Of a stretch of DNA of 64,000 bases, positions 12,184 to 35,559 are shown one piece after another. Origin of the DNA: Bryobacteraceae bacterium (lineage in GTDB: Bacteria > Acidobacteriota > Terriglobia > Bryobacterales > Bryobacteraceae); the NCBI GenBank assembly GCA_049522755.1, contig JBEKNN010000005.1, positions 15,768 to 79,767 on the forward strand. The letters run 5' to 3'. Each line of letters opens with the position of its first letter. Position 1 is the first letter of the stretch. The position numbers and the translations under genes are program-made. A model generated the notes under the pieces. It made no database searches. It had not been told where the DNA came from and saw only the letters and a list, made by a program, of their open reading frames with translations.

Positions 12184-12764
12184 ACATTCACCTCGATTGG
12201 ACTTGGCTGACTTAGCCGGCAGCAGTAACCGAGACAAGAGTTGTCTGCGTTCCGATCCGGATCGTCATTAGAGCCAGGGCACATGTCGATCCAAACGCGC
12301 AGAGATGCCCGGGGAAAACCCGCGCCGCCTTTTCAATCCGTTAGGGCGCGATGACGGATCAAGACGATTCAGCAGCCGAACTCCATGGCGTAGGCTTGCG
12401 ACGCGATGACCGCTCCCCGACACGATGGTTGACCTGAAAGGTCGCTTTCCCCAGCCGGCCAGCAGGCATTGAGCGCGGCCGGTCTTTCGGGCGCAGGGTT
12501 CCTTGCAACTGAGTAATAGCCTGATTCTTCAGGATGAAAGGCTCGATGGCCGAAGGCCGCCGGCAGACTCGATGCAGCGGGAATGCCCTGCTGGCGTACA
12601 ATCGGCCTGGCGCGAATTGCGATGGACAGGCACTTGCATGTATGCGCAATGAAGGGGGCGGCCGACGCGCTTGGGAACAAGATGCTCCGATCGCAAGCAA
12701 CCCCGGCCTGCAAATAAGTCACTCTACAACCCGGGCAAGATGCCCGATTAACCAAGGAGGTTAT

Positions 12765-13721: not shown

Positions 13722-14194
13722 TTGTCGAAACTGGTGCTGGGGGTTGCGAGTAGCGGCATGGCCGCGGGCGCAATCCTCTTGCCATGCGGTAATTCGCAAG
13801 GCGGCTATCATTGCCCGCGAAATCGAATGCGGCGTCTCCGGCCGATGACCCATCGCTGTTCGTCATCCGTGCCGTCCATGCCAGCCATGCCGGCCAAAAG
13901 CAATATCCTCTGAAATTCCCGCCGAACTGGCTGACCATGCCGCTGAGGACGACTTATCCTCGCCAAGCTCGGCGCCAATCATCGAAGTTTAGCCCCTGAA
14001 ATGGAAGAGCATCGCAATCCAGAGCGCAAGTCAAGTTCTTACCTCTCTCTAAAGTGGTAGTAGGCAATCTTATTATCCAGTGAACCAGCCAGCCCCCATC
14101 TGGAGGTTGTCAGAAGGCGGAAATTGTTCCACAATCAGTCAGAATACCGAATCAGAGCGGACAGAAGGGCTTCAGGACCCCAGCGGAGGACCCA

Positions 14195-20456: not shown

Positions 20457-23345
20457 CTAAAAGCTGGCAGAGACAGGCCGGGAGGCCTGTCCTACTACTC
20501 GCGAACCCGACCCCGGTGTGGCTGCGGTGTATGTCACCTCTTGGCCCGGAGTTGCCGCAAGCGCCCGTAGCGCCGGGTCGGAAACGCGCGGCGAGCCATC
20601 GGCCGGAATGAAGTTGCCGGCAGCCGGATCGTACAGGAAACCCGTAATGCGGCCATTCTGGACTACTTGCGCCACCAGGTCGCACTCCATCACCGATCCG
20701 TTCAACACCTTGGATACGAACGGCGCGGAGGCTCGCTGGATTAGTAAGTCGATCCGCGGGCCGACGGACGCGGCGTTGGCGCTGGTCAAAGTGACCTGCT
20801 GGCCGACGATGGGCGCGAGGTCGCTATCGAATGCGAGCATATACTGCTCCACATCGCGGCGCGTGGCGTCCGGATTGGTCTGTGGGAAGCCCGAGTTTGA
20901 AGTGGGATTGAACACACTGGCGGTGAAGAAGCGGAACAGGGTATCGACGCTGCCGTCGCCCGTGAATCCAAAGCCGCGGATTTGATTGCCCATTAACCCG
21001 CTGTCGGGCGCGCCGAATAAGTTGATGCCCGGATCGCCGAACATGCCGATCTTGGCGTACAGGTTGCGCAAATGAGGGATCTTGACAATCTGAGGGAGGT
21101 CCTCGAAGCTTTGGTTGCCGCCGGTGCCAAACTGTCCGTTCGCCGAATTCAACACATGGCAGCCCGCGCAGGTGAAGGACGACTGGCCAAAAATCTGATT
21201 GAGAGTCGCCGAGACAATGCCGTCGGACGGACGCGCGCCGGAATGAAACGCCTGGCCATTCTGTTGCGATGCGGTCAGCGAGTTATCCAGATTACGCACG
21301 GGGTTGGGCGGCGGCACAACCTGCAATTGAAAGTTCGCGAAGGTCTGTATCTGGCCTTGCGACGGCTGATACACGCTGCCGATCAAACTCTGGAAAGCGA
21401 CCACAAAATTGATGAAAGACAAGTTGGAATCGAACGGATCGGTTCCAAAGAATCCCGTGGAGCGGTCGCCGCGCCAGTGCATGGCCCCTGAGTTAGCCAG
21501 GCCGCGCAAGGTCTGCGTGGTAAACGGCCCTTTCATGGGATGGAAATCGGTAGGGTTATTACTGCCGTTGAGGGGCGTTGTGACGTTGGTCTGCCCGATT
21601 GCGATCAGCACCGGAATCAGGTTGCCGAAGTTGATCGGTATCGGGCTCTTAGTGACAGGGTTATCGGGGTTGCCCAAGTCCCAAGCCAGGTCGTCCATGT
21701 CGCCGAAGATGTGGCAGCTGGCGCAGGCCGCCTCGCCATTACCCGAGAACCGCGTAGCATCGTAGAGCATGGGCCGGCCCTCAATCACCGAATCGGGCTC
21801 CGGGTTGGGCATGGGAAATCCCGCGACTTCCTGACTCGCTTTCAGATTGATAACCTTCAGTGAGTTGTCAAAGCGCGTCATGGCATATAGCAGACCGCGC
21901 GCCTCGTCCAAAACCAACCCACTTACGCCGCCTCCACTGACTGGGATGTAGTTCGCGCTGGCTGTTACTGGATTGAACGTGTCGTTCTCAATCGAGCTGG
22001 TATCGAACACGCCGATCTTACTGGAACCGAACGCGGCGACGTAGAGTGTCTTACCGTCGGCGGTGACCGCGATATCTAACGGCATGGACAAGCTATGATC
22101 CTTCGCGGTGGGGTCAAAACCGGGCGATCCCGCGAGCTTGGTGTAATCGATATGTTTATTCAAGTGACGCGGCGCCACAGTCGATCCCGAGATCACTGTG
22201 ATACGCGCTTCGGCAAGATGACCCTGCACGGTGTGGCCGGCGAAAATCCCCGGCCCCTCAAAACGGACATTGTTAATCGCGTCGGTGTTGGAAACGTAGA
22301 GTGTCCCACTAACTGGATTAGTGGCCATGTTGAACAACGTGGTACCAACATGCGCGAACGCGGCGGTCTGCGTCAGGGCGTTGGCATCGACGGCGAACAC
22401 ATCCGTATCGGGCAGATTGAAGCGCACGGAATTGTCCCAAACCCGTTGTAACTCATCCTCCCAGTGACCGTCGCTGTTGTTGTATTTCACGATCAGACCG
22501 ACTTCCGGCGCTGGCTCGCCGATGGAATCGGTGGGCGGACCCGGATTGCCGCCGGGACTCACCGTGCCATCGGGTAGAGTGCATGGCTTATAGGGCTGGA
22601 ACCCCGCGCAAACCCTTTGTTGAAATATGGTGGTGGTCTGATTGCCGGTCTTAAAACCGGCGACATACACTGTGTTCTTATCGGGACTCACGGCCAGAGC
22701 GCGCGGCGTATCGGTGAAGAAGCTCAGGATAGTCAGCGGCGTTCCGCCCATAGTGGCGCCCAGATTCGCCGGGTCGAACACCCACACGTCCGCGCGCGGA
22801 ATGCCCGGTGTGGTCATCTGCGGATCGCCGGCGCCCGGCACGTTGGCGATGGAGGGATCGGTGCGCTGCTGTCCGCGATGAGCCGTAGTGATGAAGGCGC
22901 GCACAGGGTTCCCGGCGAACACTATGTCGCGCGGTTCATCGCCCACGATCAGAGTTTGCGCCACGTGCGGCGTCCCGGTAAGAGTGACGACGCTCACGCT
23001 ATCGGAAAGTTGATTGGTCACCCAAACTTCGGTATTAGTTCGCGCCGCGACGGCCACCGGCTCGAGGCCAACCGGGACGCGATACTCGAACACCGGCATG
23101 CCCGAAGTAAGCGTATAGACTTCCAGCGTGCCATTGGGAATATTGACGGAAAACAACGTGTTCCCATCCGGCGAAATGGCGACTGGACGCACGGGTCCGC
23201 TTTCAAACTCGACGAAGGAAGATCCGGCGGAAGAAGCGGAAACGGACTTGCGGTTGACGAGGCCGATGGCGAGCGAGGCGAGAAGGCCGAGCGCGGCGAA
23301 ACTGACGATTCGCCGGCGCGTGGGTTGGTGCAGCATTCGACGCAT
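20457..23345 (-). CDS. Secreted YVTN-type beta-propeller protein fused to a di-heme cytochrome c peroxidase-like domain
   Basis: 962 aa with a signal/TM anchor. The N-terminal half has propeller-like repeats (ISPDGNTLFSVN, VSPDKNTVYVAG, VTADGKTLYVAAFG). The C-terminal half has CASCHIFGD and CAGCHV plus KIPHLRNLYAKIGMFG, which resembles the CCP/MauG KTPxLRN motif. Confidence 0.6.
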   Translation of the reverse strand: MRRMLHQPTRRRIVSFAALGLLASLAIGLVNRKSVSASSAGSSFVEFESGPVRPVAISPDGNTLFSVNIPNGTLEVYTLTSGMPVFEYRVPVGLEPVAVAARTNTEVWVTNQLSDSVSVVTLTGTPHVAQTLIVGDEPRDIVFAGNPVRAFITTAHRGQQRTDPSIANVPGAGDPQMTTPGIPRADVWVFDPANLGATMGGTPLTILSFFTDTPRALAVSPDKNTVYVAGFKTGNQTTTIFQQRVCAGFQPYKPCTLPDGTVSPGGNPGPPTDSIGEPAPEVGLIVKYNNSDGHWEDELQRVWDNSVRFNLPDTDVFAVDANALTQTAAFAHVGTTLFNMATNPVSGTLYVSNTDAINNVRFEGPGIFAGHTVQGHLAEARITVISGSTVAPRHLNKHIDYTKLAGSPGFDPTAKDHSLSMPLDIAVTADGKTLYVAAFGSSKIGVFDTSSIENDTFNPVTASANYIPVSGGGVSGLVLDEARGLLYAMTRFDNSLKVINLKASQEVAGFPMPNPEPDSVIEGRPMLYDATRFSGNGEAACASCHIFGDMDDLAWDLGNPDNPVTKSPIPINFGNLIPVLIAIGQTNVTTPLNGSNNPTDFHPMKGPFTTQTLRGLANSGAMHWRGDRSTGFFGTDPFDSNLSFINFVVAFQSLIGSVYQPSQGQIQTFANFQLQVVPPPNPVRNLDNSLTASQQNGQAFHSGARPSDGIVSATLNQIFGQSSFTCAGCHVLNSANGQFGTGGNQSFEDLPQIVKIPHLRNLYAKIGMFGDPGINLFGAPDSGLMGNQIRGFGFTGDGSVDTLFRFFTASVFNPTSNSGFPQTNPDATRRDVEQYMLAFDSDLAPIVGQQVTLTSANAASVGPRIDLLIQRASAPFVSKVLNGSVMECDLVAQVVQNGRITGFLYDPAAGNFIPADGSPRVSDPALRALAATPGQEVTYTAATPGSGSRVVGQASRPVSASF
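20472..20495 (-). repeat. REP-like element (GTAGGACAGGCCTCCCGGCCTGTC) embedded in the last codons of the 962-aa gene
   Basis: The minus strand reads cga GTA GTA GGA CAG GCC TCC CGG CCT GTC tct gcc agc ttt tag, giving ...RVVGQASRPVSASF-stop. Confidence 0.6.
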
Positions 23346-23897: not shown

Positions 23898-24689
23898 TCA
23901 CCGTTCGAACCGCAGGCAGGCTCGGCCCAGGTAGATTTCGTCGCCGGGGCGGAGCTTTTCGCCGCGGCGGTTGCCGGCGGGGACTTCAATGGCGCGGCCG
24001 TCGCGGAAGACGCGCGTGCCGAATTCGCTTTCGTCGTCGCAGAGACGGTAGTCGCCGTCGTCCAGGCGGATGTGGGCGTGACGGCGCGATACCGTGGCGT
24101 TGGCTTCGTCGGCGCCCTCTTCGAAGACGATGTCGTTGCGGCGGATTACGCGGTGCTCGGAGTCGGTCAGCTCCGCCATCCGGCCGATGTTGGTGCGCGC
24201 CTTTTCCAGCAGGTATTCGGGGCGATCCGTCTTGCCCTTCATCACGGCTAGACGCGCGGGGGCGGCGGGTTCGGCCGGCGCGACCGGTGCGGCCGCCGGC
24301 GTGGCGGATGCGGCCGCTGGCGTGGCGTAGGCGATCTCGAACGGGTTGGGACCGGATTCAACAGCGCGCACTTCGATGGAAAATCCGCGGGGCGCCTCGC
24401 AGGCGGCGGCTTCGAGCGCCTCGCGAATGTCGGCCTCCAGGCGCTCGCCGAAGGCGGTCTCCAGGACGGCGCGGCGGTTGGCGTCGGCGGAAACCAGCGT
24501 GACGGTGAGATGCGCGAAGGGGAAGACGCGGCGGCCGCGCGCGAGGGTCTCGATTTTGCCCTCGACCTCTTCCAGAATGGCACGATGCGTCATCATCAAC
24601 TCGCTGGCATCGGCGGCGCCGAAGAGGCGCTCGGTCCAGCGCCGGAAGCCGCGCTCGATGCTCTTTTCGATGCCGGAGAACAGGCTCAT
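23898..24689 (-). CDS. FhaA-like protein: DUF3662 N-terminal domain plus C-terminal FHA domain
   Basis: 263 aa. MSLFSGIEKSIERGFRRWTERLFG matches the FhaA N-terminus. An Ala/Pro linker follows. The FHA core is NIGRM...NDIVF...VSRRHAHIRLDDGDYRLCDDESEFGTRV. Confidence 0.8.
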   Translation of the reverse strand: MSLFSGIEKSIERGFRRWTERLFGAADASELMMTHRAILEEVEGKIETLARGRRVFPFAHLTVTLVSADANRRAVLETAFGERLEADIREALEAAACEAPRGFSIEVRAVESGPNPFEIAYATPAAASATPAAAPVAPAEPAAPARLAVMKGKTDRPEYLLEKARTNIGRMAELTDSEHRVIRRNDIVFEEGADEANATVSRRHAHIRLDDGDYRLCDDESEFGTRVFRDGRAIEVPAGNRRGEKLRPGDEIYLGRACLRFER

Positions 24690-24710
24690 GGTTGAAGGCT
24701 CATGGTTGAA
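24683..24710 (-). repeat. Perfect 14-bp tandem duplication (ggctcatggttgaa x2) at the SEDS-PBP/fhaA junction
   Basis: Read directly. The minus strand is TTCAACCATGAGCC TTCAACCATGAGCC. Confidence 0.95.
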
Positions 24711-27700
24711 TCAGTCCCAGTTTGACGGCGGCGTTCACGATCTCGGCGGCCGCAGGGGCGGCGGCGGTGCCGCCGTACACTCCATTTTCCACCAGCACGG
24801 ATAAGGCGACGCGGTGCGCGGCCGTGCCGTACGGAGCAAAGCCGATGAACCAGGCGTGCGAGGCCGCGTCCTGCAATTCGGCGGTGCCGGTTTTACCAGC
24901 CATGGGCACGCTGGCGGCGGCGCGGCGGCCGGTGCCTGAGGTTACCACTTCGCGCATGAACCTGGCGAGCGTCTGCGCCTGATCGGCAGTCAGCACGGCT
25001 TCCGCCGTAGCGGTGCGAGTGTTGGTTTCATCCACGATCCATCGGCCCTGCGGCATCTGGCCGGCGTTGGCGACTGTCGCCGCGACGCGCGCCATCTGGA
25101 ACGGCGAGGCGACCACTTGTCCCTGTCCGTAGGAGGATTGCGGCAGGCTCTTCTTCAACTGCGCAGCGGTGTTGGGTTCGGCGGCGGCGATGCCGAGCAG
25201 GTTGGCGGTATCGAGCAGGGGCTGGGCGCCTACGTCGTAGGCTCCGAGCTGCGCGAAGTAGGCGTTGCAGGAGACTATGATGCCACGCTCCATGTCGACT
25301 GTGCCGTGGGGCGACTTGTCCTCTATGTCGTCGCGAATGGGGCGCGAGGAGCCTTTGATGTAGTTACCGACGCGCCCGTCCGGGAGGCGGATGCATTCGT
25401 AGGTTTTGTGCGTCAACTGCTGGTCTTTGCGGAGCGCGGCCATGGCGGTGACCACTTTGAAGGTGGAGCCGGGCGGATAGAGGCCGTAGCGCGCGCGATC
25501 GAGATAGGGGTTGGAATCGGAGTCGGGGTTGGCGGCGGGGTTGGCAGGCGGAAGCGCCTGCCCCACATTGGCAGGGGATAGGGTATTGGGTTGGGCAATT
25601 TGTTCAATGGCGGGCTGGGGGAAGCTGACGGCGGCTAGCAGGTCGCCGGTGGCGGGGTCCATCACCACGGCCGCGCCTTTGTCGAGCTGCGTCTGCTGCA
25701 ACTGCTTGCGCAGAATGTTGGCCACTTGAACCTGCAGGCGGGCGTCGATGGACATGCGGACGTTGCGCGCGCGGTCGAGCACGCGGCGTACGGCGGGGTT
25801 CTGCGGATCGTAGCGGTAGCGCAGAAGCGGCACCAGCTCGCGGTAATCGTAACGGAGGACGCGCTCGGCGGCGTGAGTCTTGGGGTTCTTGACTTCGACC
25901 AGCGTGGGCCGGTCGTCGTATCCGCGCAGGCGGCGGGCGGAATCGCGCTCCACGAACGATGTGTTGCTGGCGGCCCAGCGGGTGCGCGTGCGGAGATCGC
26001 CCAGCAGATCGAAGGTGAGGCCGCCGAAGGGATAGTGGCGCGATTCGGTGCGGGAACAGGCGCGGTCGATATCGATGCCGAGCTGCTGAAAATCGGCGCG
26101 GTGCTTTTCGAGCTCGGCCCAATCGCTGGTGGCGAGCGGCAGGCCGTTGCGGTCGTAAATGGAGCCCATGGGGATTTCACGGATCACGAACTGGAAGCGC
26201 GGATTGTATTGATAGCGGCGCGCGCCATCGGCCTGCACCACCAGCGTGCCTTCGCCCATGACGGCGCTGCTGTGGAGCACCTGGATGTAGGCGGCCTTGG
26301 CCACAACGGCTGCGCCCGCGATTCCAAGGACCACTCCGAGCGCGCCGGTGGGCATGCGGAACGGGGCGTTGCGTTTGCCGTCCGCGGGGCGCGCGGAGAT
26401 GGAAAGCAGAATCGCGATCACGGCGAAGTTGGCGAGCATCGAGGTGCGGCCATAGCTGAGGAACGGCGTGACCACGCCCGAGAGCGGCGTGACGCCCAGC
26501 GCGCCGCCGGAGATGAGCAGGATTTGCAACGCGGTGGCTGCGGCCAATCCCGTGGCGAGGAAATATTCGTAATCGGAGCGGGCGCGCAGGGCGATGCGCA
26601 GGGCGCGATACACGATAAACGCGAAGAGCGCGAAGACGGCGGCGACGCCGAGGAATCCCCATTCTTCGCCGAGCGCGGAGAGAATCAGATCGGTGTGAAC
26701 GGCGGGAACCACTTGCGAGTCGCCCAGACCGATGCCCGTGCCGGTGGCGCCGCCGGTGGCGAAAGCCCAAAGCGATTGCGCAAGCTGGTCGCCGCCGTGA
26801 ATCATGTTGTTCCAGGGCGACAGCCACATGGAGACGCGCTCGCCGACGGTGTGCGGGACGCCGAGGACGTATCCGCTCACGAACGCCGCGACGACGAGCG
26901 CCAGGCCGAGGGCGGGCACGAAGAGGCTGCCGCGCGCGATGCCGTAGAGCGCGAGGAAGAGACAGGCGAAGATGAGCGCGGGGCCCATGTCCTTCTGCAG
27001 AAAGAAAAACGCCACCGAGAGCGCCACGGAAACCAGCGCGGGCAGGGTGTACTCGACGGGCGGAATATCGAAGCGGCGGGTGAGCGCGGAGAGCGAGGCG
27101 CGCGTTTCGCGAGCGTGGCGGAGCACGTCCCAGCGGCTGGCGAAGTAGCCGGCGAGGAAGAAGACCAGCAGGATGCGGACGATCTCAACGGGTTGAAAGC
27201 CGAAGAGGTTGACCTTGGCGTCGCTGGTTCCGGGGCCGGAGCCGAACGCGATCAGCAGCGCGGAGAGCACGAAGCTGACGAGCAGCGGCACGAAGCTGAG
27301 ATTGCCCATGAGGCGCTGATAATCGAGCGCGCTGAGCGCGGCCAGCAAGACGCAGCCGACGACGACGCCTTGCGCGAAATCGGCGAAGAGCAGGTTGTCG
27401 CGGAGCGGGTCGCGCAGGCTCACCATAAGGATGAAGCCGATGCCGGTGAGCAGAAGGACGGGGGGCAGCAGGGTTTGGTCGCCAGGGAAGCGGCGGAGGC
27501 TCCAGAAGATGTGCGCGGCGAAAAAGGCGGCGAAGAAGAGGACGGTCCACAGAAGGAATGCGCGGCGGAATCGGGTCGGCTCACGGACGATGTAGAGCGG
27601 CTTCAACTGGCGGAACTGATCGGCAGTGAGCAGCGGGATGGAGGAGTGACCGGCGAGGCGGTCGCGGAATGGTTTGAGGGCGCGCGCGCCGGCGACTTCG

Positions 27701-28053
27701 TCGGCCGTGACGCGGATGCGCGCCAAGGCGCCGACATTGGCGAGGGCGCCGGAGACGTCGTAGAATTTGCGCGCAACGAAATCGCGCGTGGCGGGGTCGG
27801 GGAAAAGCGGAGTGAGCGATGGGAGGAGATCTTCGCGGGCGTTGAGGGCGTTTAGATTCAGGAGCGGCGTGGTTGCGGGAGTGGGCTTCCTGGCTTGATA
27901 GACCAGGGAGAATCCGGCGGCGATTAAGAGACTTGCGGCTAGGGTCCAGATTAGCTCGGTGGTGCGCCAGGTGAAAGAACCGGCGGCAAGACCGCCGGCG
28001 CTACCGCGGCTGGCGCTACTGCGGGTCGCTGTGGTGCTGCGGGTGACGGCCAT
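24700..28053 (-). CDS. Fusion protein: N-terminal extension, then SEDS (FtsW/RodA) glycosyltransferase, then class B penicillin-binding protein transpeptidase
   Basis: 1117 aa. Polytopic SEDS region (FQPVEIVRILLVFFLAGYF etc.), an extra TM, a PBP pedestal region (IYDRNGLPLA), and a transpeptidase with an intact STFK, SCN and KTGTA triad. Confidence 0.9.
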   Translation of the reverse strand: MAVTRSTTATRSSASRGSAGGLAAGSFTWRTTELIWTLAASLLIAAGFSLVYQARKPTPATTPLLNLNALNAREDLLPSLTPLFPDPATRDFVARKFYDVSGALANVGALARIRVTADEVAGARALKPFRDRLAGHSSIPLLTADQFRQLKPLYIVREPTRFRRAFLLWTVLFFAAFFAAHIFWSLRRFPGDQTLLPPVLLLTGIGFILMVSLRDPLRDNLLFADFAQGVVVGCVLLAALSALDYQRLMGNLSFVPLLVSFVLSALLIAFGSGPGTSDAKVNLFGFQPVEIVRILLVFFLAGYFASRWDVLRHARETRASLSALTRRFDIPPVEYTLPALVSVALSVAFFFLQKDMGPALIFACLFLALYGIARGSLFVPALGLALVVAAFVSGYVLGVPHTVGERVSMWLSPWNNMIHGGDQLAQSLWAFATGGATGTGIGLGDSQVVPAVHTDLILSALGEEWGFLGVAAVFALFAFIVYRALRIALRARSDYEYFLATGLAAATALQILLISGGALGVTPLSGVVTPFLSYGRTSMLANFAVIAILLSISARPADGKRNAPFRMPTGALGVVLGIAGAAVVAKAAYIQVLHSSAVMGEGTLVVQADGARRYQYNPRFQFVIREIPMGSIYDRNGLPLATSDWAELEKHRADFQQLGIDIDRACSRTESRHYPFGGLTFDLLGDLRTRTRWAASNTSFVERDSARRLRGYDDRPTLVEVKNPKTHAAERVLRYDYRELVPLLRYRYDPQNPAVRRVLDRARNVRMSIDARLQVQVANILRKQLQQTQLDKGAAVVMDPATGDLLAAVSFPQPAIEQIAQPNTLSPANVGQALPPANPAANPDSDSNPYLDRARYGLYPPGSTFKVVTAMAALRKDQQLTHKTYECIRLPDGRVGNYIKGSSRPIRDDIEDKSPHGTVDMERGIIVSCNAYFAQLGAYDVGAQPLLDTANLLGIAAAEPNTAAQLKKSLPQSSYGQGQVVASPFQMARVAATVANAGQMPQGRWIVDETNTRTATAEAVLTADQAQTLARFMREVVTSGTGRRAAASVPMAGKTGTAELQDAASHAWFIGFAPYGTAAHRVALSVLVENGVYGGTAAAPAAAEIVNAAVKLGLIQP

Positions 28054-29987
28054 TAGTGGATTTCCTGGAGGCGGGTGTTGGCGCTTTCCAGGCTCGCCTG
28101 CACGCGCTTGATCTGCACGTTGGAATTGCCGTAGGGCACGACGCTTTGGTAGAGGTTTAGAGCGTGCTGGTAATCGCCGGCGGCGCGGCTGATCTGGTCC
28201 CTTTCCTGTGGAAGACCTTGAATATTGATCGCATCCAGGCGGAGGCGGTCGCCGCGGTCGCGGTAGCCGTCGGCGAGCTCCAGCTTCTCCCGGTTGCCCA
28301 ATTGATAGCCGAAGCGGGCGGCCTGCTGTAGCGCGGCGTCGGCTTTATCGACGTCCTTGAGGCCGTAGATATCGACGAGCGCGAGGCCAAGTTGCGGATC
28401 GGGCGATTGCGGCAGGAGCTGTTGCGCCTGGTTGAACTTTTCGGCAGCCAGCGTCAATTGCCCGGCATCGCGGTGGCGCAAGCCTTCGATGCGCGCGATG
28501 TGGCCTTCGCTGAGACGGTATTCGCCGCGCGCGGTTTCATCGTCGGGATTCACGGCGAGAGCGTGGGAAAGCAGCGTCTGCGCGCGCTCCCAATCCTTTT
28601 CATAGACGGCCTGCGTGTCGTTGCGGTAGCGCGCGATCACGATGTTGGCGGCGTCCAGGAATCGGCGATCGACCAAACCGCGGACGCCCCACAATGCAGA
28701 AGACGAGGGAGCGGTCTTGGAAAGTTCCGTCCATTTCGTCCAGATCTGATCGGGATCGGTGAGCTGTTCCGACTTGATTTCGCGTTCGAGGCCCTGGCCG
28801 GCGTCATGCAGTCGAAACCAGGAGAAGATGGAGGAGCCGCCGTAGAGTACGCAGCCAACCGCGAGAGCCGCAACCACGCGCGTGACATTACGGAAAAGTC
28901 TGGAGCGCAGCGTTGGCTTGGAACCGGGCTTTGGCCAAGCTTGCTTCGATGGGGCGGGCGCGGGCGGCGTGGTGCGGCGCGTGGCGTCGCTGGACGACTG
29001 GCCGAATAAGCGGCCGGACGAGGGATCGGGCACGTGCCGGGCGGTGCGGCGGGTGGCGTCGGGATCGGCAGCGGGGGCGCCACGCGTTGCGGTGCTCGAA
29101 GCGGCGATTGGGGCGGCGCTTGGAGCAACAATGGGGCCGCCGGTGCGAAACAGAATAAGGTCGTTGGCGAAATCGCGCGCAGTGTGATAGCGGACGGCCG
29201 GATCGTTGGCAAGCGCCTTCATCAGAATGCGGCGCAGGGGATCGGGGCACGGGTCGGGCGCGGGCGGCGGAGGAATGCGCGAACGGATCATGCGCTCCAG
29301 GCGCTCGGTGCTCTCGGCGTGATAGGGCGTCATGCCGGTGAGCATTTCGTAGAGCATGACGGCGAGCGACCAAAGGTCGGACTGGGCGTTGACGTCGCCG
29401 GTATCGAGGCGTTCGGGCGAGGCGTAGGGCACGCTGCCGAATTCGTTGCGGGTGAGGCGGCGCGAGAGCGAGAGAGCTTTGGCGATGCCGAAATCGAGCA
29501 CGCGCACTTCGCCGTGCGCGTCGATGCGGACGTTCTTGGGCTTGATGTCGCCGTGGACGATGCCGCGGAAATTCTTGCCGCCGATGGTGGTCTGGAAGTT
29601 GTGCGCGTTCTCCAAAGTCTCGGCGACGGCGATGGCGGCGTCGGCGGCGAATTCGCACTCCAGCGGGCCGTGGCGCATCAACTCGGCGAGATCCTGACCG
29701 TCGATGTATTCCATGGCGACGAAGAAGAAGGTTTCCACGTCGCCGTATTCGAAGACGCCCACGACGTGCGATTCGACGGCGGCGAGGCGCGCCTGCAATT
29801 CGGCGCCGCGGCGCTCGGCTTCGATGGCGTCGCGCGAATCGGCGTCGCCGCAGTGCTCGATGAGCTTGAGGGCTACGGTGCGATTGGCTTCGGTATCCTG
29901 CGCGAGATAGACGTCGGCCATGCCGCCGCGGCCGAGCTTGCGGAGAATCTCATATTTGCCGAGCTTGCGGCTGGCGGGGGCGATCAT
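28053..29987 (-). CDS. Hanks-type Ser/Thr protein kinase with a single TM and a TPR-like extracytoplasmic domain
   Basis: Start chosen at MIAPASRKLGKYEILRKLGRGGMADVY, whose ATGA overlaps the PP2C stop. Catalytic motifs HGDIKPKNV and DFGIAK. A Pro-rich linker and a TM follow, then about 260 aa of helical-repeat region. No PASTA repeats. Confidence 0.9.
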   Translation of the reverse strand: MIAPASRKLGKYEILRKLGRGGMADVYLAQDTEANRTVALKLIEHCGDADSRDAIEAERRGAELQARLAAVESHVVGVFEYGDVETFFFVAMEYIDGQDLAELMRHGPLECEFAADAAIAVAETLENAHNFQTTIGGKNFRGIVHGDIKPKNVRIDAHGEVRVLDFGIAKALSLSRRLTRNEFGSVPYASPERLDTGDVNAQSDLWSLAVMLYEMLTGMTPYHAESTERLERMIRSRIPPPPAPDPCPDPLRRILMKALANDPAVRYHTARDFANDLILFRTGGPIVAPSAAPIAASSTATRGAPAADPDATRRTARHVPDPSSGRLFGQSSSDATRRTTPPAPAPSKQAWPKPGSKPTLRSRLFRNVTRVVAALAVGCVLYGGSSIFSWFRLHDAGQGLEREIKSEQLTDPDQIWTKWTELSKTAPSSSALWGVRGLVDRRFLDAANIVIARYRNDTQAVYEKDWERAQTLLSHALAVNPDDETARGEYRLSEGHIARIEGLRHRDAGQLTLAAEKFNQAQQLLPQSPDPQLGLALVDIYGLKDVDKADAALQQAARFGYQLGNREKLELADGYRDRGDRLRLDAINIQGLPQERDQISRAAGDYQHALNLYQSVVPYGNSNVQIKRVQASLESANTRLQEIH

Positions 29988-31534
29988 TTCTTCTTGCCTC
30001 CGTGGGCCGGCGGTTTGGCATCGACCATAAAATTGTGTTCGCGGATGGCGTCGGGCGCGATATTGGGCGGCAATTCGAGCACGGCGGTCCACGGAACTTG
30101 CGCCGCGCTTCTTTCGAAGACGTTGCCGACGAGCTCCGGGGTGGCGCCGTCGCGCGCGGCGATGGACGGGCCTTTGATGCGCTGGAACGTGTTGTGCGTG
30201 ACTAAGGGCGAAGAGGCGCCCGCGATCAGCAGGCCCTCGGCGATGCAATCGTGGATGGCGTTGCCGCGCAAGGTGGGGCTGGCGGCGCCGCGGATCTCGA
30301 TGCCCACGTTGGCGCCTTCGATATCGACGCCTTCGATATCGACGCTGGAATTGTCGAGCAGAATGCCGGAGGAGAGCGGAGTTTGCGCGTCGCCTTGAAT
30401 GAGGAAGCCGGTGACCCGGGCGGTGTGGACATCTTTGGCTACGATGGCGGGGCCGCCGCCAACGGAGGCGACCAGACGGGCTTCGCGCAGAACGCGGCTG
30501 CGCAAGGTGACGCCGGATTTCAGAGTCACCTGCTCGCGATATTCGCCGGCGAGGACTTCGACGGTGTCGTTGGGGCGCGCCTGGGCGAGAGCGGCGGCGA
30601 TGGTGTCGAAGCGCGCGCCGTGGCCGGCGGAGAGCACGCGCGGCTCAATGACGACGGGCAGCGGAACGAAATAGGGGCGCGCGAACCAGGCTGCGGCCAG
30701 CGCCAGCGCGAGGCCGTAGACGAAAACCGCGGGGCGGCTGGCGAAGGGGTTGCCGGATGGAGCGGGCGCGTGGGGCGCGGCGGGCGCGGTGAACTGATCG
30801 CCTTCCACCACTACGATGGTGATGTTGTCTTTGCCGCCGGCGCGGTTGGCGGCGTCGATGAGCTCGCGGATGGCGGCGTCGGGGTCGCCCGCGCGGCGCT
30901 CGACGGCGCGCTGAATTTCGGCGGCGGGGACCAGATCGGACAGGCCGTCGCTGCAGAGGAGGAGGGCGCTTTCGGCGTCGAAGGGGATGCGCTGAATCTC
31001 GATGAAGTTGGCGTCGTCGGGCTCGTGTTCCTCGGAGCCGACATCGCGGAAGACCTCATTGCGGCGCGGGTGGCGCATGGCTTCCGTTTCGCCGATCTCG
31101 CCCTTGTCTTCGCGCTCGCCGACGGGGGAATGATCGTGGGTGATTTTGCGAATTTCGCCGCGGCGGATCTGGTAGAGGCGCGAATCGCCCACATGGCCGA
31201 CGACGGCCGATCCATTCTCAAGCACCACCACGGTGAGGACGCAGGCCATGCCTTCCCATTCGGGATTGGCGCGCGCGGCCTTGAGGATTTCGTTATTGGC
31301 GATGGCGATGGCTTCGCGGATGCGCTGTTCGGTGGCGCCGGTCTGACGCTCCAGGCGGGCGCGGAGGCGCTCGACGGCGATGGCGGCGGCTTTCTCGCCG
31401 GCAGCCTGGCCGCCGATGCCGTCGACGACGAGGAAGATACCGCGGTCGGCGTCGATGTGGAAGGCGTCCTCATTGTTGCGGCGAACGCGGCCGGGGTCGG
31501 TGCGGCCGGAGAATTTGATGGCGGTCTTCACCAT
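29984..31534 (-). CDS. PP2C-family Ser/Thr phosphatase with a TM and an extracytoplasmic right-handed beta-helix (PbH1-like) domain
   Basis: Start chosen at MVKTAIKFSGRTDPGRVRRNNEDAF. PP2C motifs VVDGIGG, DGLSD and GGKDNITIVVV. The TM is VFVYGLALALAAAWF. Repetitive G-x-I/V segments then follow (ILLDNSSVDIEGVDIEGANVGIEIRGAASPTLRGNAIHDC). Confidence 0.9.
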   Translation of the reverse strand: MVKTAIKFSGRTDPGRVRRNNEDAFHIDADRGIFLVVDGIGGQAAGEKAAAIAVERLRARLERQTGATEQRIREAIAIANNEILKAARANPEWEGMACVLTVVVLENGSAVVGHVGDSRLYQIRRGEIRKITHDHSPVGEREDKGEIGETEAMRHPRRNEVFRDVGSEEHEPDDANFIEIQRIPFDAESALLLCSDGLSDLVPAAEIQRAVERRAGDPDAAIRELIDAANRAGGKDNITIVVVEGDQFTAPAAPHAPAPSGNPFASRPAVFVYGLALALAAAWFARPYFVPLPVVIEPRVLSAGHGARFDTIAAALAQARPNDTVEVLAGEYREQVTLKSGVTLRSRVLREARLVASVGGGPAIVAKDVHTARVTGFLIQGDAQTPLSSGILLDNSSVDIEGVDIEGANVGIEIRGAASPTLRGNAIHDCIAEGLLIAGASSPLVTHNTFQRIKGPSIAARDGATPELVGNVFERSAAQVPWTAVLELPPNIAPDAIREHNFMVDAKPPAHGGKKK

Positions 31535-31799
31535 GGGAACCCCGTGCGGCGCAAGAATGACGGAACGAAGCCAATTCGGGGTGAAAGGCAATGGAATGAA
31601 CAGGTTGCCAGGGTGCGGCGAGGGGCAATCTGGTTATTGGCCATGGACGGCATAACTGGCTCAACTGATTTTAGCAGTGGGAGGACTCGGATTTCGACGC
31701 TGAGACGCGGAGGCGCTGAGATCGGAAAGACTAAGAGTATGAGGATTGGGAGAAGCGCTTCGCGGGCGGCGGGCCTATTGGACTTTTCGTCGTGTGTGT

Positions 31800-31960: not shown

Positions 31961-31988
31961 TTGACAAGGGCTCCGGCCCGTTTAAAAT
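31961..31988 (+). promoter_or_regulatory. Near-consensus sigma70-like promoter: TTGACA, 16 nt, TAAAAT
   Basis: TTGACA lies at 31961-31966 and TAAAAT at 31983-31988. A small ORF ATG follows at 32011. Confidence 0.4.
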
Positions 31989-32010: not shown

Positions 32011-32151
32011 ATGTCGACTGCGTGCGATCACACCCGTACCCAGATTATTGCCCGCCGGGATGGCGTCGATTATCTCGAATGCCTGGATTGTCGTCAGATA
32101 TTTGAGGCCGAAGACCTGGAACCAGTCAAAGTGGAGGACGACGAAGAGTAG
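32011..32151 (+). CDS. Candidate small (46 aa) zinc-ribbon-like protein with an acidic tail. Not in the ORF track.
   Basis: MSTACDHTRTQIIARRDGVDYLECLDCRQIFEAEDLEPVKVEDDEE, with C-x-H ... C-x-x-C spacing. It is preceded by the promoter-like element. No SD sequence, and GC3 is lower than in neighbouring genes. Confidence 0.3.
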   Translation: MSTACDHTRTQIIARRDGVDYLECLDCRQIFEAEDLEPVKVEDDEE

Positions 32152-32230: not shown

Positions 32231-34456
32231 ATGAGGGCAGCTCCCTTTGGGCTTCCACTGGCAATCGCCGCGGCCGGTTTGAGCGCGTGGGCGCAGGTCT
32301 CCGCCACCATCGATATCAACACCGCGCAGACTACGCCGCTTAACGCCAATTTCAGTGGGTTCAACGACGAGGTGGTTTTTCCGGCAGAGTTCTTCGACTA
32401 CCGGCTGAACGCGATCGCGGCTGAGTTAGCGCCGGGTTGGGTGAGGTACCCAAGCGGCAGCTTTAGCGACGCGTTCAACAGGCAGACCGGCCTGATGGCG
32501 TCCTCATGGGCGGCGCAGTTTCAGGGTACGAATATCGCCACGCTGCTGACCGAGGCGGTTCCATGGGTCAACGGGAAAGGAGGCGGCTCGTTTGTGGATG
32601 GGGCGAACCGGGCGAATTTTCTGGGCGCGAAACTGATTGTCTGCGTCTACGGTTTCACGGATACCGCCCAGTCGGCCGGCCAGATGGCTGCATTCGCCAA
32701 GGCCAATAATATTCCCGTGGCGGTGTGGGAGCTATCCAACGAGCCTTATTTGTATCCAAGCTTTTTCACTTCGGGCGCCGACTATGTCACCAAGATGAAG
32801 CCGTATCGCGACGCCATCAAGGCGGCCGACGCCAACGCCGTCGTGGCTATCTTTTTCATCGACGCCGGCGACGCTACTCCCAATCCAACCTGGAACCAAT
32901 CGATCATAAGCTATGGGACGCCTTACTGGGACGCGGTAACTTACCATCACTATCCGCCGCAGAGTACCGGCGCCTTCAGCCAGTGGATGGCGGATGAGAA
33001 TGCCGTGCTGGCGACTAAGACATCGGCGTATGTTACCGGCTATCTCGCGCCGCTGAATCCGCCCGGTACGAAGTTCCTCATCTCGGAGTTTCTTCCCTCC
33101 AACGACGGATTGGGCACAGGCACTTCATTGACCGACGGGACGCTCTATGGCGCTATCTACGCGGCTGAATACACGATGCGGATGTCGAGCGTGCCCGCCA
33201 TGTTGTATGTAGGAATGCACGCACTCACGGGTACTACGGGCGTGTATGCGGTGAACGCTCATTACACCGACGTACAGAATGCGTATGACGCGGGGACAAC
33301 CATTGACACTCTGACGCTCGATTTCGGCTATTACCTCACGGCGCAGCCCCTGGGATTAGCGGTGTTGAACGGCGTTCTGCAAAACACGACTTCCGTGGAT
33401 GCGACCACTGTCACCGGCGGCGCGACTGTGCCCGCTACAGGTCTGGGTACAATTCCAGCTCTCTACGCGCAGGCGTACACCACTGCCACCGGTCGGCAAA
33501 GCGTGGTGATCGCGAACAAGGGCGCGACGGCCAATCAGGTGACGATTCGGGTCAACGGCACGCCGGCGATCGGGCCGCTGCCCGTCACATTCATCGCTGG
33601 GTCAGACCCCGCTACGCAGAACACGGCGGACAGCCAGAATGCCGTCGCGGTGCAGACATCCACCTTGTTTAACCCTGTCACTGTGCCCGCTTATAGCGTG
33701 GTGCGGGTGGATCTGAATCCCTCATTTGTCGCGTCAGCGGTTAACAGCGCCAGTTACGCATCGAGTGTGGTGGCGCCGCAGGAGATTGTGTCGCTGTTCG
33801 GATCGGAAATAGCCTTGCAGACGGCCAGCGCGTCACTGCCTCCTCCCACGGTTCTCGGAGCGCCTCGGTTCAGATCACCGACAGCGCAGGCAACAGTCAG
33901 CTGGCGCCGCTGTTCTCGGTCTCTTACTCCCAGGCGAACATTCTGATTCCGTCGGGTCTCGCAGCCGGCCAGGCGAGCTTCACAACGCTGCACGGGCCGC
34001 CGACGCCAGCGGCGCAACCGGTGTCGCTGACCGGGTCGATGACCATCGCGTCATCCGCGCCGGGACTCTACAGCGCGAACGCGGACGGCGCGGGCGTCGC
34101 CGCTGCCGTCGCTTTTCGCATTACCGCGGCCCAATCAGACAGTGAGTGAGACAGCGTTCACCTGCAATCCGCCCGCGGTGCGTAGCTGTCTGGCATCGCC
34201 ACTGAGCCTGGGCGCGGCGACTGACACGCTGTATGTGGAACTTTATGGCACGGGAATCCGCGGCGCCGCGTCGGTTCAATGTTATGTGGGCGGGCTGAGC
34301 GTGCCGGTGCTCTACGCCGGGCCGGTAGCGGCGAACGCGGGCCTGGATCAAGTGAATATCTCGATCCCGAAGAGTCTGGCGGGCACGGGCGATGTGCGGG
34401 TATATCTGGTTGCGGATGGAGCGATCTCGAACGTGGTCGGCTTGAACGTGCAGTGA
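32231..34456 (+). pseudogene. Secreted clan GH-A-like glycoside hydrolase with a Solibacter-type C-terminal Ig-like domain, interrupted by two frameshifts
   Basis: Signal peptide, then WELSNEPY (acid/base) and FLISEF (nucleophile-like). The C-terminal domain begins NSASYASSVVAPQEIVSLFG. It continues only in another frame from about 33859 (SASVQITDSAGNSQLAPLFSVSYSQANILIP...APGLYSAN...) and in a third frame from 34142 (TAFTCNPP...LYGTGIRG...YAGPVAANAGLDQVNISIPKSLAGTGDV). Confidence 0.6.
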
Positions 34457-35381: not shown

Positions 35382-35559
35382 CGGCTTGGTCTCCGGAATG
35401 GCAGTAGCAATTAAACGACCGAAGTGGGAAGTGCTCGCAACGAGGCCGATTCGTTGAAACTTACTTCCGGGTTCAGAATGCAATTGCTGCTAAGGTTTAA
35501 TCCGGACTAATGACTTCCCATCTCGCCATCCGAATTCTTATTCTATTTCTCGCTACGGC

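Follow-up and report, generated by a model that had tools for sequence, protein, structure and literature searches.

Within the analysed stretch of 64 kb (hereafter the window), which derives from a soil acidobacterium of the Bryobacteraceae (Acidobacteriota), four minus-strand genes formed an operon in the order pp2c, stk, seds::bpbp and fhaA-like, accompanied by a short duplication and a promoter-like site:

29984-31534, minus strand: PP2C phosphatase ORF, 516 aa
28053-29987, minus strand: Hanks kinase ORF, 644 aa, start codon ATG
24700-28053, minus strand: SEDS::class B PBP (bPBP) fusion ORF, 1117 aa
23898-24689, minus strand: FhaA-like ORF, 263 aa
24682-24709, minus strand: exact 14-bp tandem duplication, TCAACCATGAGCCT twice (copies 24709-24696 and 24695-24682), covering the stop codon of the fusion and the start of the FHA gene, read directly
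31668-31697, minus strand: promoter-like site TCGAAA-18-TAAAAT with TG extension (consensus scan, 9/12 matches; weak evidence), about 130 nt upstream of the PP2C start

Gene calling on the ENA and JGI assemblies, which are public and independent of each other, returned the same four proteins. Direct reading of the junctions showed ATGA at 29984-29987 between the PP2C and kinase genes, with GGAGG approximately 10 nt upstream, TAATG at 28051-28055 between the kinase and fusion genes, and a 10-nt gap at 24690-24699 between the fusion and FHA genes, in agreement with the coordinates and overlaps that an earlier note on this DNA had given for four tightly packed genes. The 10-nt gap was caused by the 14-bp tandem duplication, which yields a 5-codon mini-ORF (MSLQP followed by a stop codon, 24703-24686) with an ATGA overlap at either end. 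The duplication copied an ancestral ATGA stop/start overlap, and an undisturbed 4-nt fusion/FHA overlap was retained in the relative L003. Pfam searches for the domains that the note had proposed matched SEDS, Transpeptidase, Pkinase, PP2C, Beta_helix, FHA and TPR domains, while PBP_dimer (E 0.18) and DUF3662/FhaA_N (E 0.038) remained below threshold.

The first gene encodes a membrane-anchored phosphatase with the following parts:

30803-31513, minus strand: PP2C catalytic domain, aa 8-244 (PP2C_2, 3.6e-17)
30665-30745, minus strand: single transmembrane (TM) helix, approximately aa 264-290 (hydropathy 1.55)
30110-30616, minus strand: periplasmic right-handed beta-helix domain, approximately aa 307-475 (Beta_helix, 1.4e-10)

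The catalytic domain scored 63.1 bits with PF13672 and 56.4 bits with PF00481. Among solved structures, the phosphatase matched cyanobacterial tPphA (6.7e-35) and M. tuberculosis PstP (1.6e-30), the latter being the third-ranked distinct protein, after tPphA. The metal-binding motifs of PP2C phosphatases, RxxNED (RNNEDA), DGxGG (DGIGG), GDSR, DGL and KDN, aligned with those of tPphA. The ectodomain also matched DUF1565 and NosD in Pfam and, together with the one TM helix, agreed with the beta-helix ectodomain described in the note; such ectodomains usually bind glycans.

The kinase was resolved into a catalytic domain, a disordered juxtamembrane linker (aa 291-362) carrying two short repeated motifs, a TM helix and an ectodomain:

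29145-29966, minus strand: Hanks Ser/Thr kinase domain, aa 8-281 (Pkinase, 8e-38)
29043-29054, minus strand: first TRRT motif, aa 312-315, in the context DATRRT (homologue alignment)
28971-28982, minus strand: second TRRT motif, aa 336-339, in the context DATRRT (homologue alignment)
28812-28886, minus strand: TM helix, approximately aa 368-392
28056-28775, minus strand: periplasmic all-alpha TPR-like domain, aa 405-644

The kinase domain reached 130.7 bits with PF00069, and its best match among solved structures was PknB (3f61, 3.6e-36); PknB, Stk1 and PknA were the top Foldseek matches of the kinase model, with TM-scores of 0.82-0.87 to PknB and Stk1. K41, H145-G-D147 and D165-F-G167 were invariant in 40 kinase homologues, such that the HRD of the RD subclass was replaced throughout by H145-G146-D147. 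The protein was therefore classified from its sequence as a PknB-like but non-RD (HGD) kinase. Its ectodomain, modelled with AF2 at a pLDDT of 86-97 (81 for the kinase), scored 26.8 bits with TPR_19 (cut-off 25), with TPR_11 and TPR_2 just under their cut-offs, and gave no PASTA match in the Pfam search, so that the TPR-like, non-PASTA ectodomain described earlier was confirmed as an all-alpha solenoid. Both the HGD signature and the TRRT motifs had been overlooked. T312, R313, R314 and T315 were invariant in the 40 homologues inside an otherwise variable linker, and the kinases of the window, L003 and L004 held two to three TRRT copies, against a background of 0.14 TR[RS]T per 1000 aa. These motifs are candidate autophosphorylation and FHA-docking sites; TRxT corresponds to no FHA consensus known to us.

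The third gene product combines two catalytic modules, for a peptidoglycan glycosyltransferase and a D,D-transpeptidase, in a single chain, with FTSW_RODA_SPOVE (2e-51) and Transpeptidase (1e-39) matches on the same 1117-aa protein. A hydropathy scan predicted 13 TM helices, in the order cytoplasmic tail, TM helix, periplasmic helix-hairpin-helix (HhH)-like domain, TM helix and ten SEDS helices, a cytoplasmic loop of 9 residues then leading to the bPBP anchor and, in the periplasm, to the pedestal-like region and the transpeptidase:

27955-28053, minus strand: cytoplasmic N-terminal tail, aa 1-33, starting MAVTRS (homologue alignment)
27571-27897, minus strand: periplasmic loop, aa 53-161, helical, HhH-like (topology)
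26383-27471, minus strand: SEDS glycosyltransferase core, aa 195-557, 10 TM helices (FTSW_RODA_SPOVE, aa 199-554)
25684-26355, minus strand: bPBP anchor, aa 567-590, and divergent pedestal-like region, aa 594-790 (topology, TM)
24736-25677, minus strand: transpeptidase domain, aa 793-1106 (Transpeptidase, 1e-39)

The N-terminal add-on (tail, HhH-like domain and the two extra TM helices at aa 34-52 and 162-187) was another feature that the earlier reading had missed. Its periplasmic loop was modelled with a pLDDT of 70-87 and was without a match in the Pfam search of the window protein; HHH_3 matched this loop in 4 of 32 family members (best 3.7e-11). For the fusion as a whole, AF2 gave a poor model (pLDDT 54).

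The SEDS core scored 175.5 bits with PF01098 (cut-off 26.4) over residues 199-554 but reached none of the equivalog thresholds of FtsW, RodA and SpoVE, and was therefore not assigned to any of these specifically. It aligned with P. aeruginosa FtsW (8bh1, 3.7e-22), including the HTD motif, whose catalytic D455 lies in the large 67-residue periplasmic loop (aa 400-466) between TM7 and TM8. D455 was invariant and E290 and D355 nearly so among 32 homologues down to 30% identity. The extra TM helix following the SEDS part, from which the note had argued that the topology fits, is the bPBP's own membrane anchor, internal to the chain after SEDS TM10 and the basic cytoplasmic loop, and the topology therefore works. 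In the pedestal-like region a G-S-I-Y-D-R-N-G-L-P-L-A motif was located at aa 630-641; PBP_dimer (PF03717), below detection in the window protein, was found in 10 and PBP_dimer_2 (PF21922) in 2 of the 32 family members. The transpeptidase domain (PF00905, 137 bits) had pbp2_mrdA as best family match (5e-48) and M. tuberculosis PbpA (3un7, 1.9e-20) as best PBP among solved structures. Its STFK (863-866), SCN (928-930) and KTGTA (1054-1058) motifs, which the note had described as intact, were invariant in the same 32 homologues, and proper alignment revealed no loss of catalytic residues; every catalytic motif of the fusion is intact.

The fourth gene encodes a soluble FhaA-like adaptor, a putative phosphothreonine binder, that consists of two domains joined by an Ala/Pro linker:

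24315-24689, minus strand: FhaA_N-like domain, aa 1-125 (hhalign)
23901-24242, minus strand: FHA domain, aa 150-263 (FHA, 4.5e-07)

Of its description as a DUF3662+FHA protein, the FHA part was confirmed by PF00498 (30.6 bits, cut-off 20.7) and by matches to the solved OdhI and GarA FHA domains. The N-terminal part was weak by Pfam (PF12401, 14.9 bits, cut-off 25) and without a match among solved structures, and drew its support from profile-profile comparison with actinobacterial FhaA N-domains (hhalign, 96.9%, E 1.6e-10 over 116 columns, with templates picked using the query profile). G169, R170, S201, R202 and H204 of the FHA domain, which include the Gly-Arg, Ser and His positions known for phosphothreonine binding, were invariant among homologues. 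The domain may bind in a different way, since it has SEFGT in place of the Asn typical of the NG motif and an unusual insertion separates its conserved GR and SR motifs. FhaB, or any second FHA gene, was absent from the 64-kb window; relatives with enough upstream sequence carried a second, upstream FHA gene.

The covalent fusion of SEDS and bPBP proposed in the note was well supported by comparison with relatives. The 1117-aa protein was identical on the ENA and JGI assemblies, with no frameshift or assembly error at the SEDS/PBP boundary, and the fusion formed one uninterrupted ORF in all 80 related metagenome loci. Full-length relatives at 69-92% identity numbered more than 120, more than 100 clusters at the 50% identity level were full-length fusions, and the two parts were joined by a conserved cytoplasmic loop of 9 residues and a conserved anchor helix. 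The protein is therefore a genuine, conserved natural SEDS::class B transpeptidase fusion.

The FHA gene followed the fusion directly in 75 of 80 loci, and PP2C and kinase genes directly preceded it in 29 of the 36 loci whose upstream sequence reached 4 kb or more. The genes flanking the cluster varied between relatives. Linkage to the partner genes persisted at 33-39% identity with shuffled gene order, and one protein was a PP2C-SEDS-bPBP triple fusion. A subgroup of 12 loci had the fusion and FHA genes with no kinase or phosphatase nearby and retained the MAVTRS tail, indicating that an adjacent kinase is not obligatory; partner genes were missing altogether around one relative at 30% identity. 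The constant core is the fusion with its downstream FHA gene, and the term "self-contained" that had been applied to the module was too strong, given this subgroup and a window without a second FHA gene.

The MAVTRS tail, likewise overlooked before, was near-universal: T4, S6 and R11 were invariant in 41 homologues, the motif was kept down to approximately 41% identity, and T4 and S6 were present in nearly all of approximately 73 readable tails. We propose T4 as a phospho-acceptor and FHA-binding site; the predicted topology places the tail on the membrane face shared by all cytoplasmic partner domains. From gene linkage and motif conservation we infer phospho-Thr control of the synthase. The fused enzyme would, within one polypeptide, polymerise lipid II and cross-link the new strand, with its activity or placement set through reversible threonine phosphorylation. 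A periplasmic cue would be sensed by the kinase via its TPR-like domain, and the kinase would phosphorylate the TRRT motifs of its disordered juxtamembrane linker and, most likely, also Thr4 of the synthase tail. Binding of the phosphothreonine by the FhaA-like protein would switch or recruit the synthase, and the PP2C would reverse the phosphorylation. In StkP, phosphorylated juxtamembrane threonines recruit division proteins (PMC12077195).

Overall, the data are likely best explained by a phospho-regulated operon with a single-chain synthase that is probably accessory or conditional rather than the housekeeping Rod or divisome pair. The 64-kb window contained no mre, dcw or other wall genes, and published fused proteins coexist with canonical pairs, intact FtsI/FtsW and MrdA/RodA being kept in Senegalimassilia and Pedobacter (PMC12516126). 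This coexistence argues against the fusion being the principal elongation synthase, equivalent to RodA-PBP2, with the kinase system tuning normal growth, as do the lack of linkage to mreBCD, rlmH or dcw genes, the variable flanks and a fusion codon signature unlike that of neighbouring genes in this lineage. Such a role would agree with the conservation of the gene throughout the Bryobacteraceae-like clade, with the strong constraint on catalytic residues and with SEDS and transpeptidase parts closest to RodA and PbpA of the actinobacterial cluster, the elongation pair there, but on balance we consider it unlikely.

We are also doubtful that the module is a back-up in which a low-affinity PBP with its own polymerase is switched on by the kinase upon wall damage, for instance by soil beta-lactams, comparable to PBP2a or PBP5 with SEDS partners and to IreK/IreP control in enterococci. 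The transpeptidase domain also matched PBP5, PBP2a and Mec families, with some alignments extending into the pedestal (e.g., 4bl3 at residues 632-1072), and the periplasmic sensors, the seemingly accessory location and a BlaR/BlaI-like pair approximately 6 kb from the cluster in L004 would suit this role. However, the best family match was pbp2_mrdA and not a resistance PBP, and the window, L003 and L005 had no such BlaR pair near the cluster.

There is little probability that the kinase, phosphatase and FHA genes have other regulatory targets and lie beside the synthase gene by co-inheritance alone. The 12 loci without kinase or phosphatase, the distant fused gene that stands alone and the usually multi-substrate nature of bacterial Hanks kinases would fit this, but it is disfavoured by linkage kept from 92% to 33% identity despite rearranged order, by the direct fusion of PP2C to the synthase tail in one protein, by the overlapping stop and start codons and by the functional linkage of the homologous actinobacterial locus (PMC6554272). 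That the 1117-aa ORF is an artefact of frameshift, misassembly or read-through of two separate genes was refuted by the independent assemblies, the 80/80 intact loci and the conserved loop and anchor helix; SEDS and transpeptidase were separate ORFs in one related contig (L089), but its PP2C/beta-helix gene was also broken and its PBP part lay in two pieces, the pattern left by long-read assembly indel errors.

The proposed phospho-regulated synthase operon shares five linked families with the actinobacterial locus fhaA-fhaB-pstP-rodA-pbpA-pknA-pknB (M. tuberculosis Rv0014c-Rv0020c; PMC6554272): a PP2C with TM helix and ectodomain, a SEDS protein, a class B PBP, a PknB-type kinase and an FhaA_N+FHA adaptor. 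The SEDS segment scored 1e-35 to 1e-48 against RodA of the actinobacterial cluster, compared to 1e-8 to 1e-24 against mrdB-type SEDS proteins; because of these scores and the PknB, PstP and PbpA structure matches, the likeness, which the note had described as mirroring, reflects homology and not only analogy. Nevertheless, the window did not hold the full actinobacterial gene set and order, and represents a homologous but different locus type. Here, SEDS and bPBP form one polypeptide with an extra N-terminal two-TM and HhH-like module; a single kinase, non-RD (HGD) and TPR-like instead of PASTA-bearing, replaces two; the phosphatase ectodomain is a beta-helix; the kinase gene precedes the synthase gene and the FhaA-like gene comes last; FhaB is missing from the window; and the organism is an acidobacterium, hence Gram-negative.

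Natural "bifunctional class B" SEDS-bPBP chimeras have been described from Senegalimassilia faecalis (931 aa), Rhodococcus jostii (947 aa) and Pedobacter ginsengisoli (1341 aa), within a set of 117 InterPro proteins; in S. faecalis and P. ginsengisoli, genes for Ser/Thr kinases and phosphatases flank the chimera gene (PMC12516126, Microlife 2025). Chimeras with such neighbours have thus been known since 2025, and the novelty implied in the earlier note was overstated. The domain order (SEDS, pedestal, transpeptidase) is the same, whereas the acidobacterial family is absent from that description, as are the obligatory FHA partner, the N-terminal module, the conserved tail and the TPR and beta-helix ectodomains. 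Fusions between PP2C and kinase genes also occurred in Eggerthella, Denitrobacterium and other Coriobacteriales; in Coriobacteriia the fusion is part of the classical cluster, and coriobacterial fusions lack the N-terminal extension of the acidobacterial one. Fusion relatives of 1300-1400 aa were encoded beside PP2C in a contig of 41.5% GC.

The same two catalytic modules make up the non-covalent complexes of T. thermophilus RodA-PBP2 (6pl5), E. coli RodA-PBP2 (8tj3) and P. aeruginosa FtsW-FtsI (8bh1), and engineered RodA-PBP2 and SpoVE-SpoVD fusions were active in vivo and in vitro (PMC6207328). Since the SEDS C-terminus and the start of the bPBP anchor are both cytoplasmic, an end-to-end fusion is topologically natural. 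Unlike these non-covalent and engineered pairs, the present fusion is natural, with a linker of only 9 residues and a divergent pedestal, and its control would be expected to involve phosphorylation and an FHA adaptor rather than MreC/MreD or FtsQLB/FtsN.

Co-transcribed PP2C and Hanks kinase genes also characterise the Firmicutes pairs PrkC/PrpC, StkP/PhpP and IreK/IreP, which control wall synthesis. The kinase scored 226.6 bits with the PASTA kinase family NF033483 (cut-off 450), the kinase half alone aligning and PASTA repeats being absent, and the phosphatase 205.8 bits with NF033484 (Stp1_PP2C_phos), just under the cut-off of 230. In contrast to the Firmicutes pairs, the acidobacterial system has no PASTA repeats, its phosphatase is membrane-anchored with an ectodomain, and its operon also encodes a dedicated synthase and an FHA adaptor.

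The four minus-strand ORFs described in the earlier note were recovered at the same coordinates, and the same four proteins were found in public gene calls from two independent assemblies:

29984-31534, minus strand: ORF of the PP2C phosphatase, 516 aa
28053-29987, minus strand: ORF of the kinase, 644 aa counted from the ATG
24700-28053, minus strand: ORF of the fusion of a SEDS glycosyltransferase with a class B PBP (SEDS::bPBP), 1117 aa
23898-24689, minus strand: ORF of the FHA protein, 263 aa

Base-by-base reading of the junctions confirmed the ATGA overlap at 29984-29987, with GGAGG approximately 10 nt upstream of it, the TAATG at 28051-28055 and the 10-nt gap at 24690-24699. The gap resulted from an exact 14-bp tandem duplication at the fusion/FHA junction, where TCAACCATGAGCCT occurs twice (24709-24682, minus strand). 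The duplicated unit is an ATGA stop/start overlap, undisturbed in the related locus L003, and the overlap that the duplication has split is the ancestral state. The duplication also created a 5-codon mini-ORF (MSLQP*, 24703-24686, minus strand), the ATG of which overlaps the fusion stop and the TGA of which overlaps the FHA start, giving an ATGA link on either side.

A 46-aa ORF, MSTACDHTRTQIIARRDGVDYLECLDCRQIFEAEDLEPVKVEDDEE, diverges from the operon at 32011-32151 (plus strand); its product has an acidic tail and three Cys residues, two of which form a CxxC pair, and the JGI gene calls include it on contig L002. Just upstream of it, at 31961-31988 (plus strand), lies the best sigma-70-like match of the region (TTGACA-16-TAAAAT, 11/12). 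Pfam gave no significant domain for the flanking ORFs at 20457-23345 (minus), 32231-33946 (plus) and 34476-35483 (minus), encoding 962, 571 and 335 aa, and these were not conserved beside the cluster in the related loci L003, L004 and L005. Further away, three paralogous double MacB_PCD/FtsX permease genes (461-3247, plus; 36404-39046, minus; 39149-41809, minus) are unrelated to the operon; multiple genes of this type are typical of Acidobacteriota. A DUF1552 (HXXSHH) gene together with a PSD/PSCyt multi-domain gene (DUF1585, 1587, 1588, 1592, 1595) occupies 6083-9762 (minus), a pairing best known from Planctomycetes.

The joining of SEDS and transpeptidase (TP) in a single chain proved to be genuine. 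An identical 1117-aa protein was present on one ENA and one JGI contig, and a 90%-cluster search returned over 120 relatives of full length, with identities of 69-92%, the named ones belonging to Bryobacteraceae, 'Ca. Sulfopaludibacter' and Acidobacteriia. Among 50%-identity representatives, an exhaustive search yielded well over 100 clusters of fused proteins, 1000-1400 aa in length and extending to approximately 30% identity; the distant ones carry almost no organism names, and their phylum range is derived from GC content and literature only. The N-terminal extension, SEDS, pedestal and TP were encoded in a single stop-to-stop ORF in all 80 related metagenome loci. Given the identity on two assemblies and these uninterrupted ORFs, the probability that the fusion is an artefact of a frameshift or assembly error is negligible. 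Two apparent split versions were rejected: in L089 (2597-11100) the PP2C/beta-helix gene was broken too and the SEDS/PBP gene lay in three pieces, probably through indel errors in a long-read assembly, and L090 was truncated by the contig end. The former calls for caution in any split-versus-fused survey.

Within the fusion, Pfam placed FTSW_RODA_SPOVE at residues 199-554 (2e-51) and Transpeptidase at 793-1106 (1e-39). The STFK, SCN and KTGTA motifs, previously described as intact, did not vary in any of 32 homologues, the most distant at 30% identity, and neither did D455 of HTD. The pedestal appears divergent; PBP_dimer was not significant in the window protein and was detected by Pfam in 10 of the 32 family members. 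A hydropathy scan predicted 13 transmembrane (TM) helices in the following arrangement:

Residues 1-33: cytoplasmic tail
Residues 34-52: first N-terminal TM helix
Residues 53-161: 109-residue loop
Residues 162-187: second N-terminal TM helix
Residues 195-557: ten SEDS helices
Between the SEDS helices and the bPBP anchor: basic loop of 9 residues
Residues 567-590: bPBP anchor, followed by the periplasmic remainder

The 'extra TM' reported earlier after the SEDS core is present and fits the topology, but it is the bPBP's own anchor and nothing extra. Since the C-terminus of a SEDS protein and the N-terminus of a bPBP both lie in the cytoplasm, an end-to-end fusion requires nothing further. The N-terminal module had been overlooked. 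Its loop (53-161) was predicted to be helical with fair confidence by AF2, and the N-terminal 195 residues of the window protein had no match in Pfam. The loop matched a ComEA-type helix-hairpin-helix in 4 of 32 diverse family members (HHH_3, best 3.7e-11), and its assignment to this fold in the window protein derives from those matches. Two longer relatives carried a CarboxypepD_reg-like domain in the N-terminal region, before the SEDS core. The AF2 model of the full fusion, based on 41 close homologues, had a pLDDT of 54 and was confident only in the N-terminal module and in part of the SEDS helices.

The phosphatase has a complete PPM catalytic domain (PP2C_2, 3.6e-17, Pfam), with cyanobacterial tPphA (6.7e-35) and M. 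tuberculosis PstP (1.6e-30) as its best solved relatives; the metal-binding motifs align. A single hydrophobic helix at residues approximately 264-290 is followed by a right-handed beta-helix (Beta_helix 1.4e-10; DUF1565 and NosD also matched), in agreement with the ectodomain proposed from the sequence. Ectodomains of this type typically bind glycans. The kinase is PknB-like (3f61 at 3.6e-36 in a profile search of solved structures), and Foldseek aligned its model with PknB, Stk1 and PknA at TM-scores of 0.82-0.87, the matches covering kinase domains only and leaving the ectodomain uninformed. A kinase 100% identical to it carries a Bryobacteraceae label. Among 40 aligned homologues, the catalytic Lys, Asp and DFG were invariant and HGD replaced HRD in every one, making it a non-RD kinase. 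Residues 291-362 were predicted to be disordered, and are followed by a TM helix and an all-alpha domain, for which AF2 gave a confident ten-helix prediction (pLDDT 86-97). TPR matches to this ectodomain lay at or just under the Pfam thresholds, TPR_19 was called in many homologues and PASTA repeats were not found by Pfam, which agrees with its earlier description as TPR-like rather than PASTA.

The FHA protein carries a C-terminal FHA domain with its Gly-Arg, Ser-Arg and His residues. The earlier designation as FhaA-like (DUF3662 plus FHA) held for this domain; FhaA_N was faint by Pfam (E 0.038), and the N-domain profile matched that of actinobacterial FhaA N-domains (probability 96.9%, E 1.6e-10), with templates that had been picked using the query profile. 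A profile search against solved structures returned FHA domains only (OdhI, GarA), with no N-domain match. The FhaA-like gene immediately followed the fusion gene in 75 of the 80 loci, the contigs of the other five ending there. The kinase was directly upstream in 55 loci, and PP2C and kinase were both present in 29 of the 36 loci having at least 4 kb upstream, while 12 loci for which at least 2.2 kb upstream was available had neither kinase nor phosphatase there. These 12, from the loci L091-L170 and at 65-69% identity, form a subgroup with fusion and FhaA-like gene only (L125, L132, L149, L150, L152, L153, L160 and L164 among them). It had no kinase or phosphatase within up to 8 kb upstream and nevertheless kept the MAVTRS tail at the fusion's N-terminus; in L150, the one locus checked, the upstream genes were on the opposite strand. 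The cognate kinase of this subgroup, if any, must be encoded elsewhere. Because the FHA linkage is constant and kinase and phosphatase are missing in some loci, the core unit is the synthase with its FHA adaptor, and kinase and phosphatase are usual but non-obligatory neighbours.

A second, different FHA gene preceded PP2C in 25 of 25 loci with a PP2C and at least 5 kb upstream; it was absent from the window, where no remnant was found, and also from L004. Distant relatives showed the orders STK-FHA-PP2C-fusion-FHA (39% identity), FHA-PP2C-STK-fusion (35%) and PP2C-fusion (33%), and one fused relative at 30% identity stood alone without partner genes. The 1389-aa protein P0134 (L085, 10001-14170; a single contig present in both ENA and NCBI) is a triple fusion of PP2C, SEDS and bPBP in one reading frame, in which a PP2C without TM helix and ectodomain is attached immediately ahead of an internal 'MATIYKR' tail. 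Upstream of its gene lie an FHA gene and an ORF of 41 aa, with no kinase nearby. ORFs of 30-41 aa were observed between the upstream FHA and PP2C genes in three distant loci (L085, 9847-9972; L089, 3442-3534; the P0210 locus, 5083-5184).

Candidate phosphosites were found in both synthase and kinase. The synthase tail has the consensus M-[A/P]-[V/I/L]-T-[R/H/Y]-S, with T4 and S6 invariant in 41 close homologues and kept in nearly all of approximately 73 readable tails, including loci without an adjacent kinase; the motif persists to approximately 41% identity. The kinase linker contains two or three [D/E]-x-T-R-R-T motifs in an otherwise variable, disordered stretch, and T312-R-R-T315 was invariant in 40 homologues. 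The synthase tail reads T-R-S-T, and the background frequency of TR[RS]T in the six-frame ORFs of the window was 0.14 per 1000 residues. In S. pneumoniae, StkP recruits division proteins through its phosphorylated juxtamembrane threonines (PMC12077195), and FhaA and FhaB of the mycobacterial locus are phosphothreonine readers (PMC6554272). In the proposed mechanism, the fused enzyme would polymerise and cross-link peptidoglycan as a single chain, the kinase would sense a periplasmic cue via its TPR-like domain and phosphorylate Thr4 of the synthase as well as the TRRT motifs of its own linker, the FhaA-like adaptor would bind these marks and switch or position the synthase, and the PP2C, with an ectodomain of a typically glycan-binding type, would reset the system. 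The parts, intact catalytic residues, membrane topology and conserved linkage are established at the level of sequence; a phospho-controlled single-chain synthase is the likely general model, and the specific phosphosites are put forward more tentatively.

The fusion module suggests a putative accessory role, since no other wall genes were found elsewhere in the 64-kb window, the cluster flanks differ among relatives, the four genes share a codon signature and published fused proteins coexist with canonical pairs (PMC12516126). In the signature, GC3 is 0.80-0.84 and C strongly predominates at third positions, where the G-minus-C skew is −0.39 to −0.53, compared to −0.23 to +0.12 in the other 25 window genes; it is common to the L004 cluster (6509-14059) and not seen in L003, L085 and L087. 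In view of this uneven distribution, recent horizontal transfer is no more than one candidate explanation of the GC and codon anomaly; transfer within the lineage and selection are both possible causes. A role as the principal elongation synthase, which the same observations would disfavour, is unlikely, and that of a back-up synthase triggered by damage or beta-lactams somewhat less likely still. It is very improbable that kinase, phosphatase and FHA protein are regulators unrelated to the synthase. A more far-reaching extension of the phospho-controlled model, which we consider doubtful, is that fusion and FhaA-like protein form a distinct class of single-chain synthase switched by phosphothreonine at Thr4, read by the adaptor, written by the non-RD TPR-like kinase and erased by the beta-helix PP2C, in a cassette that moves from genome to genome and across phyla (GC 41-62%, flanks that differ, a codon signature of its own). 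If so, Gram-negative soil bacteria would gain a conditional wall-building machine independent of the Rod complex and the divisome.

Even in Actinobacteria and Firmicutes, there is still little understanding of the route from Ser/Thr phosphorylation to SEDS-bPBP synthases. Here, one operon combines the enzyme pair in one chain with a presumed writer, eraser and reader and a short conserved candidate phosphosite, and therefore offers a small defined system for reconstitution in vitro and for structural studies of a natural SEDS-bPBP fusion. Its value as a compact model of phospho-control is moderate, the architecture having already been catalogued and the function being inferred. The natural SEDS-bPBP chimeras described in PMC12516126 (Microlife 2025), comprising 117 InterPro proteins, are listed there as putative 'bifunctional class B' synthases; Ser/Thr kinase and phosphatase genes flank the fusion genes of S. 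faecalis (931 aa) and P. ginsengisoli (1341 aa), and future study was called for. The novelty claimed in the earlier note was thus overstated, although its interpretation was supported. RodA-PBP2 and SpoVE-SpoVD have been engineered as functional fusions (PMC6207328). Our literature search found no paper combining Acidobacteria with this kind of SEDS-bPBP system. As far as we found, the size of the acidobacterial family, the obligatory FHA partner, the N-terminal module and conserved tail of the fusion, the TRRT linker motifs, the non-RD kinase and the two non-PASTA ectodomains are apparently new.

Among the matches listed in a survey of species-representative genomes (at least one Bryobacteraceae locus included), most Actinomycetota encoded PP2C, SEDS, bPBP, kinase and kinase as separate genes; SEDS and TP shared one ORF between PP2C and kinase in Eggerthella, Denitrobacterium and two other Coriobacteriales. 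The window SEDS segment matched actinobacterial cluster RodA at 1e-35 to 1e-48, compared to 1e-8 to 1e-24 for SEDS genes preceded by a bPBP gene (order mrdA-mrdB), which came from Nitrospirales, Ignavibacteriota, Chloroflexota and other groups, and the best solved transpeptidase relative was M. tuberculosis PbpA. Because of these scores, the likeness to the actinobacterial cluster noted earlier is homology. Gram-negative Acidobacteriota thus possess relatives of the 'actinobacterial' wall-signalling locus in which the periplasmic sensors are different, so that wall-linked Hanks kinase signalling is not tied to PASTA domains. Compared to the actinobacterial locus, the window differs in gene order, in the number and type of kinases and in both ectodomains; it is without FhaB, and has the N-terminal module and the SEDS-bPBP fusion.
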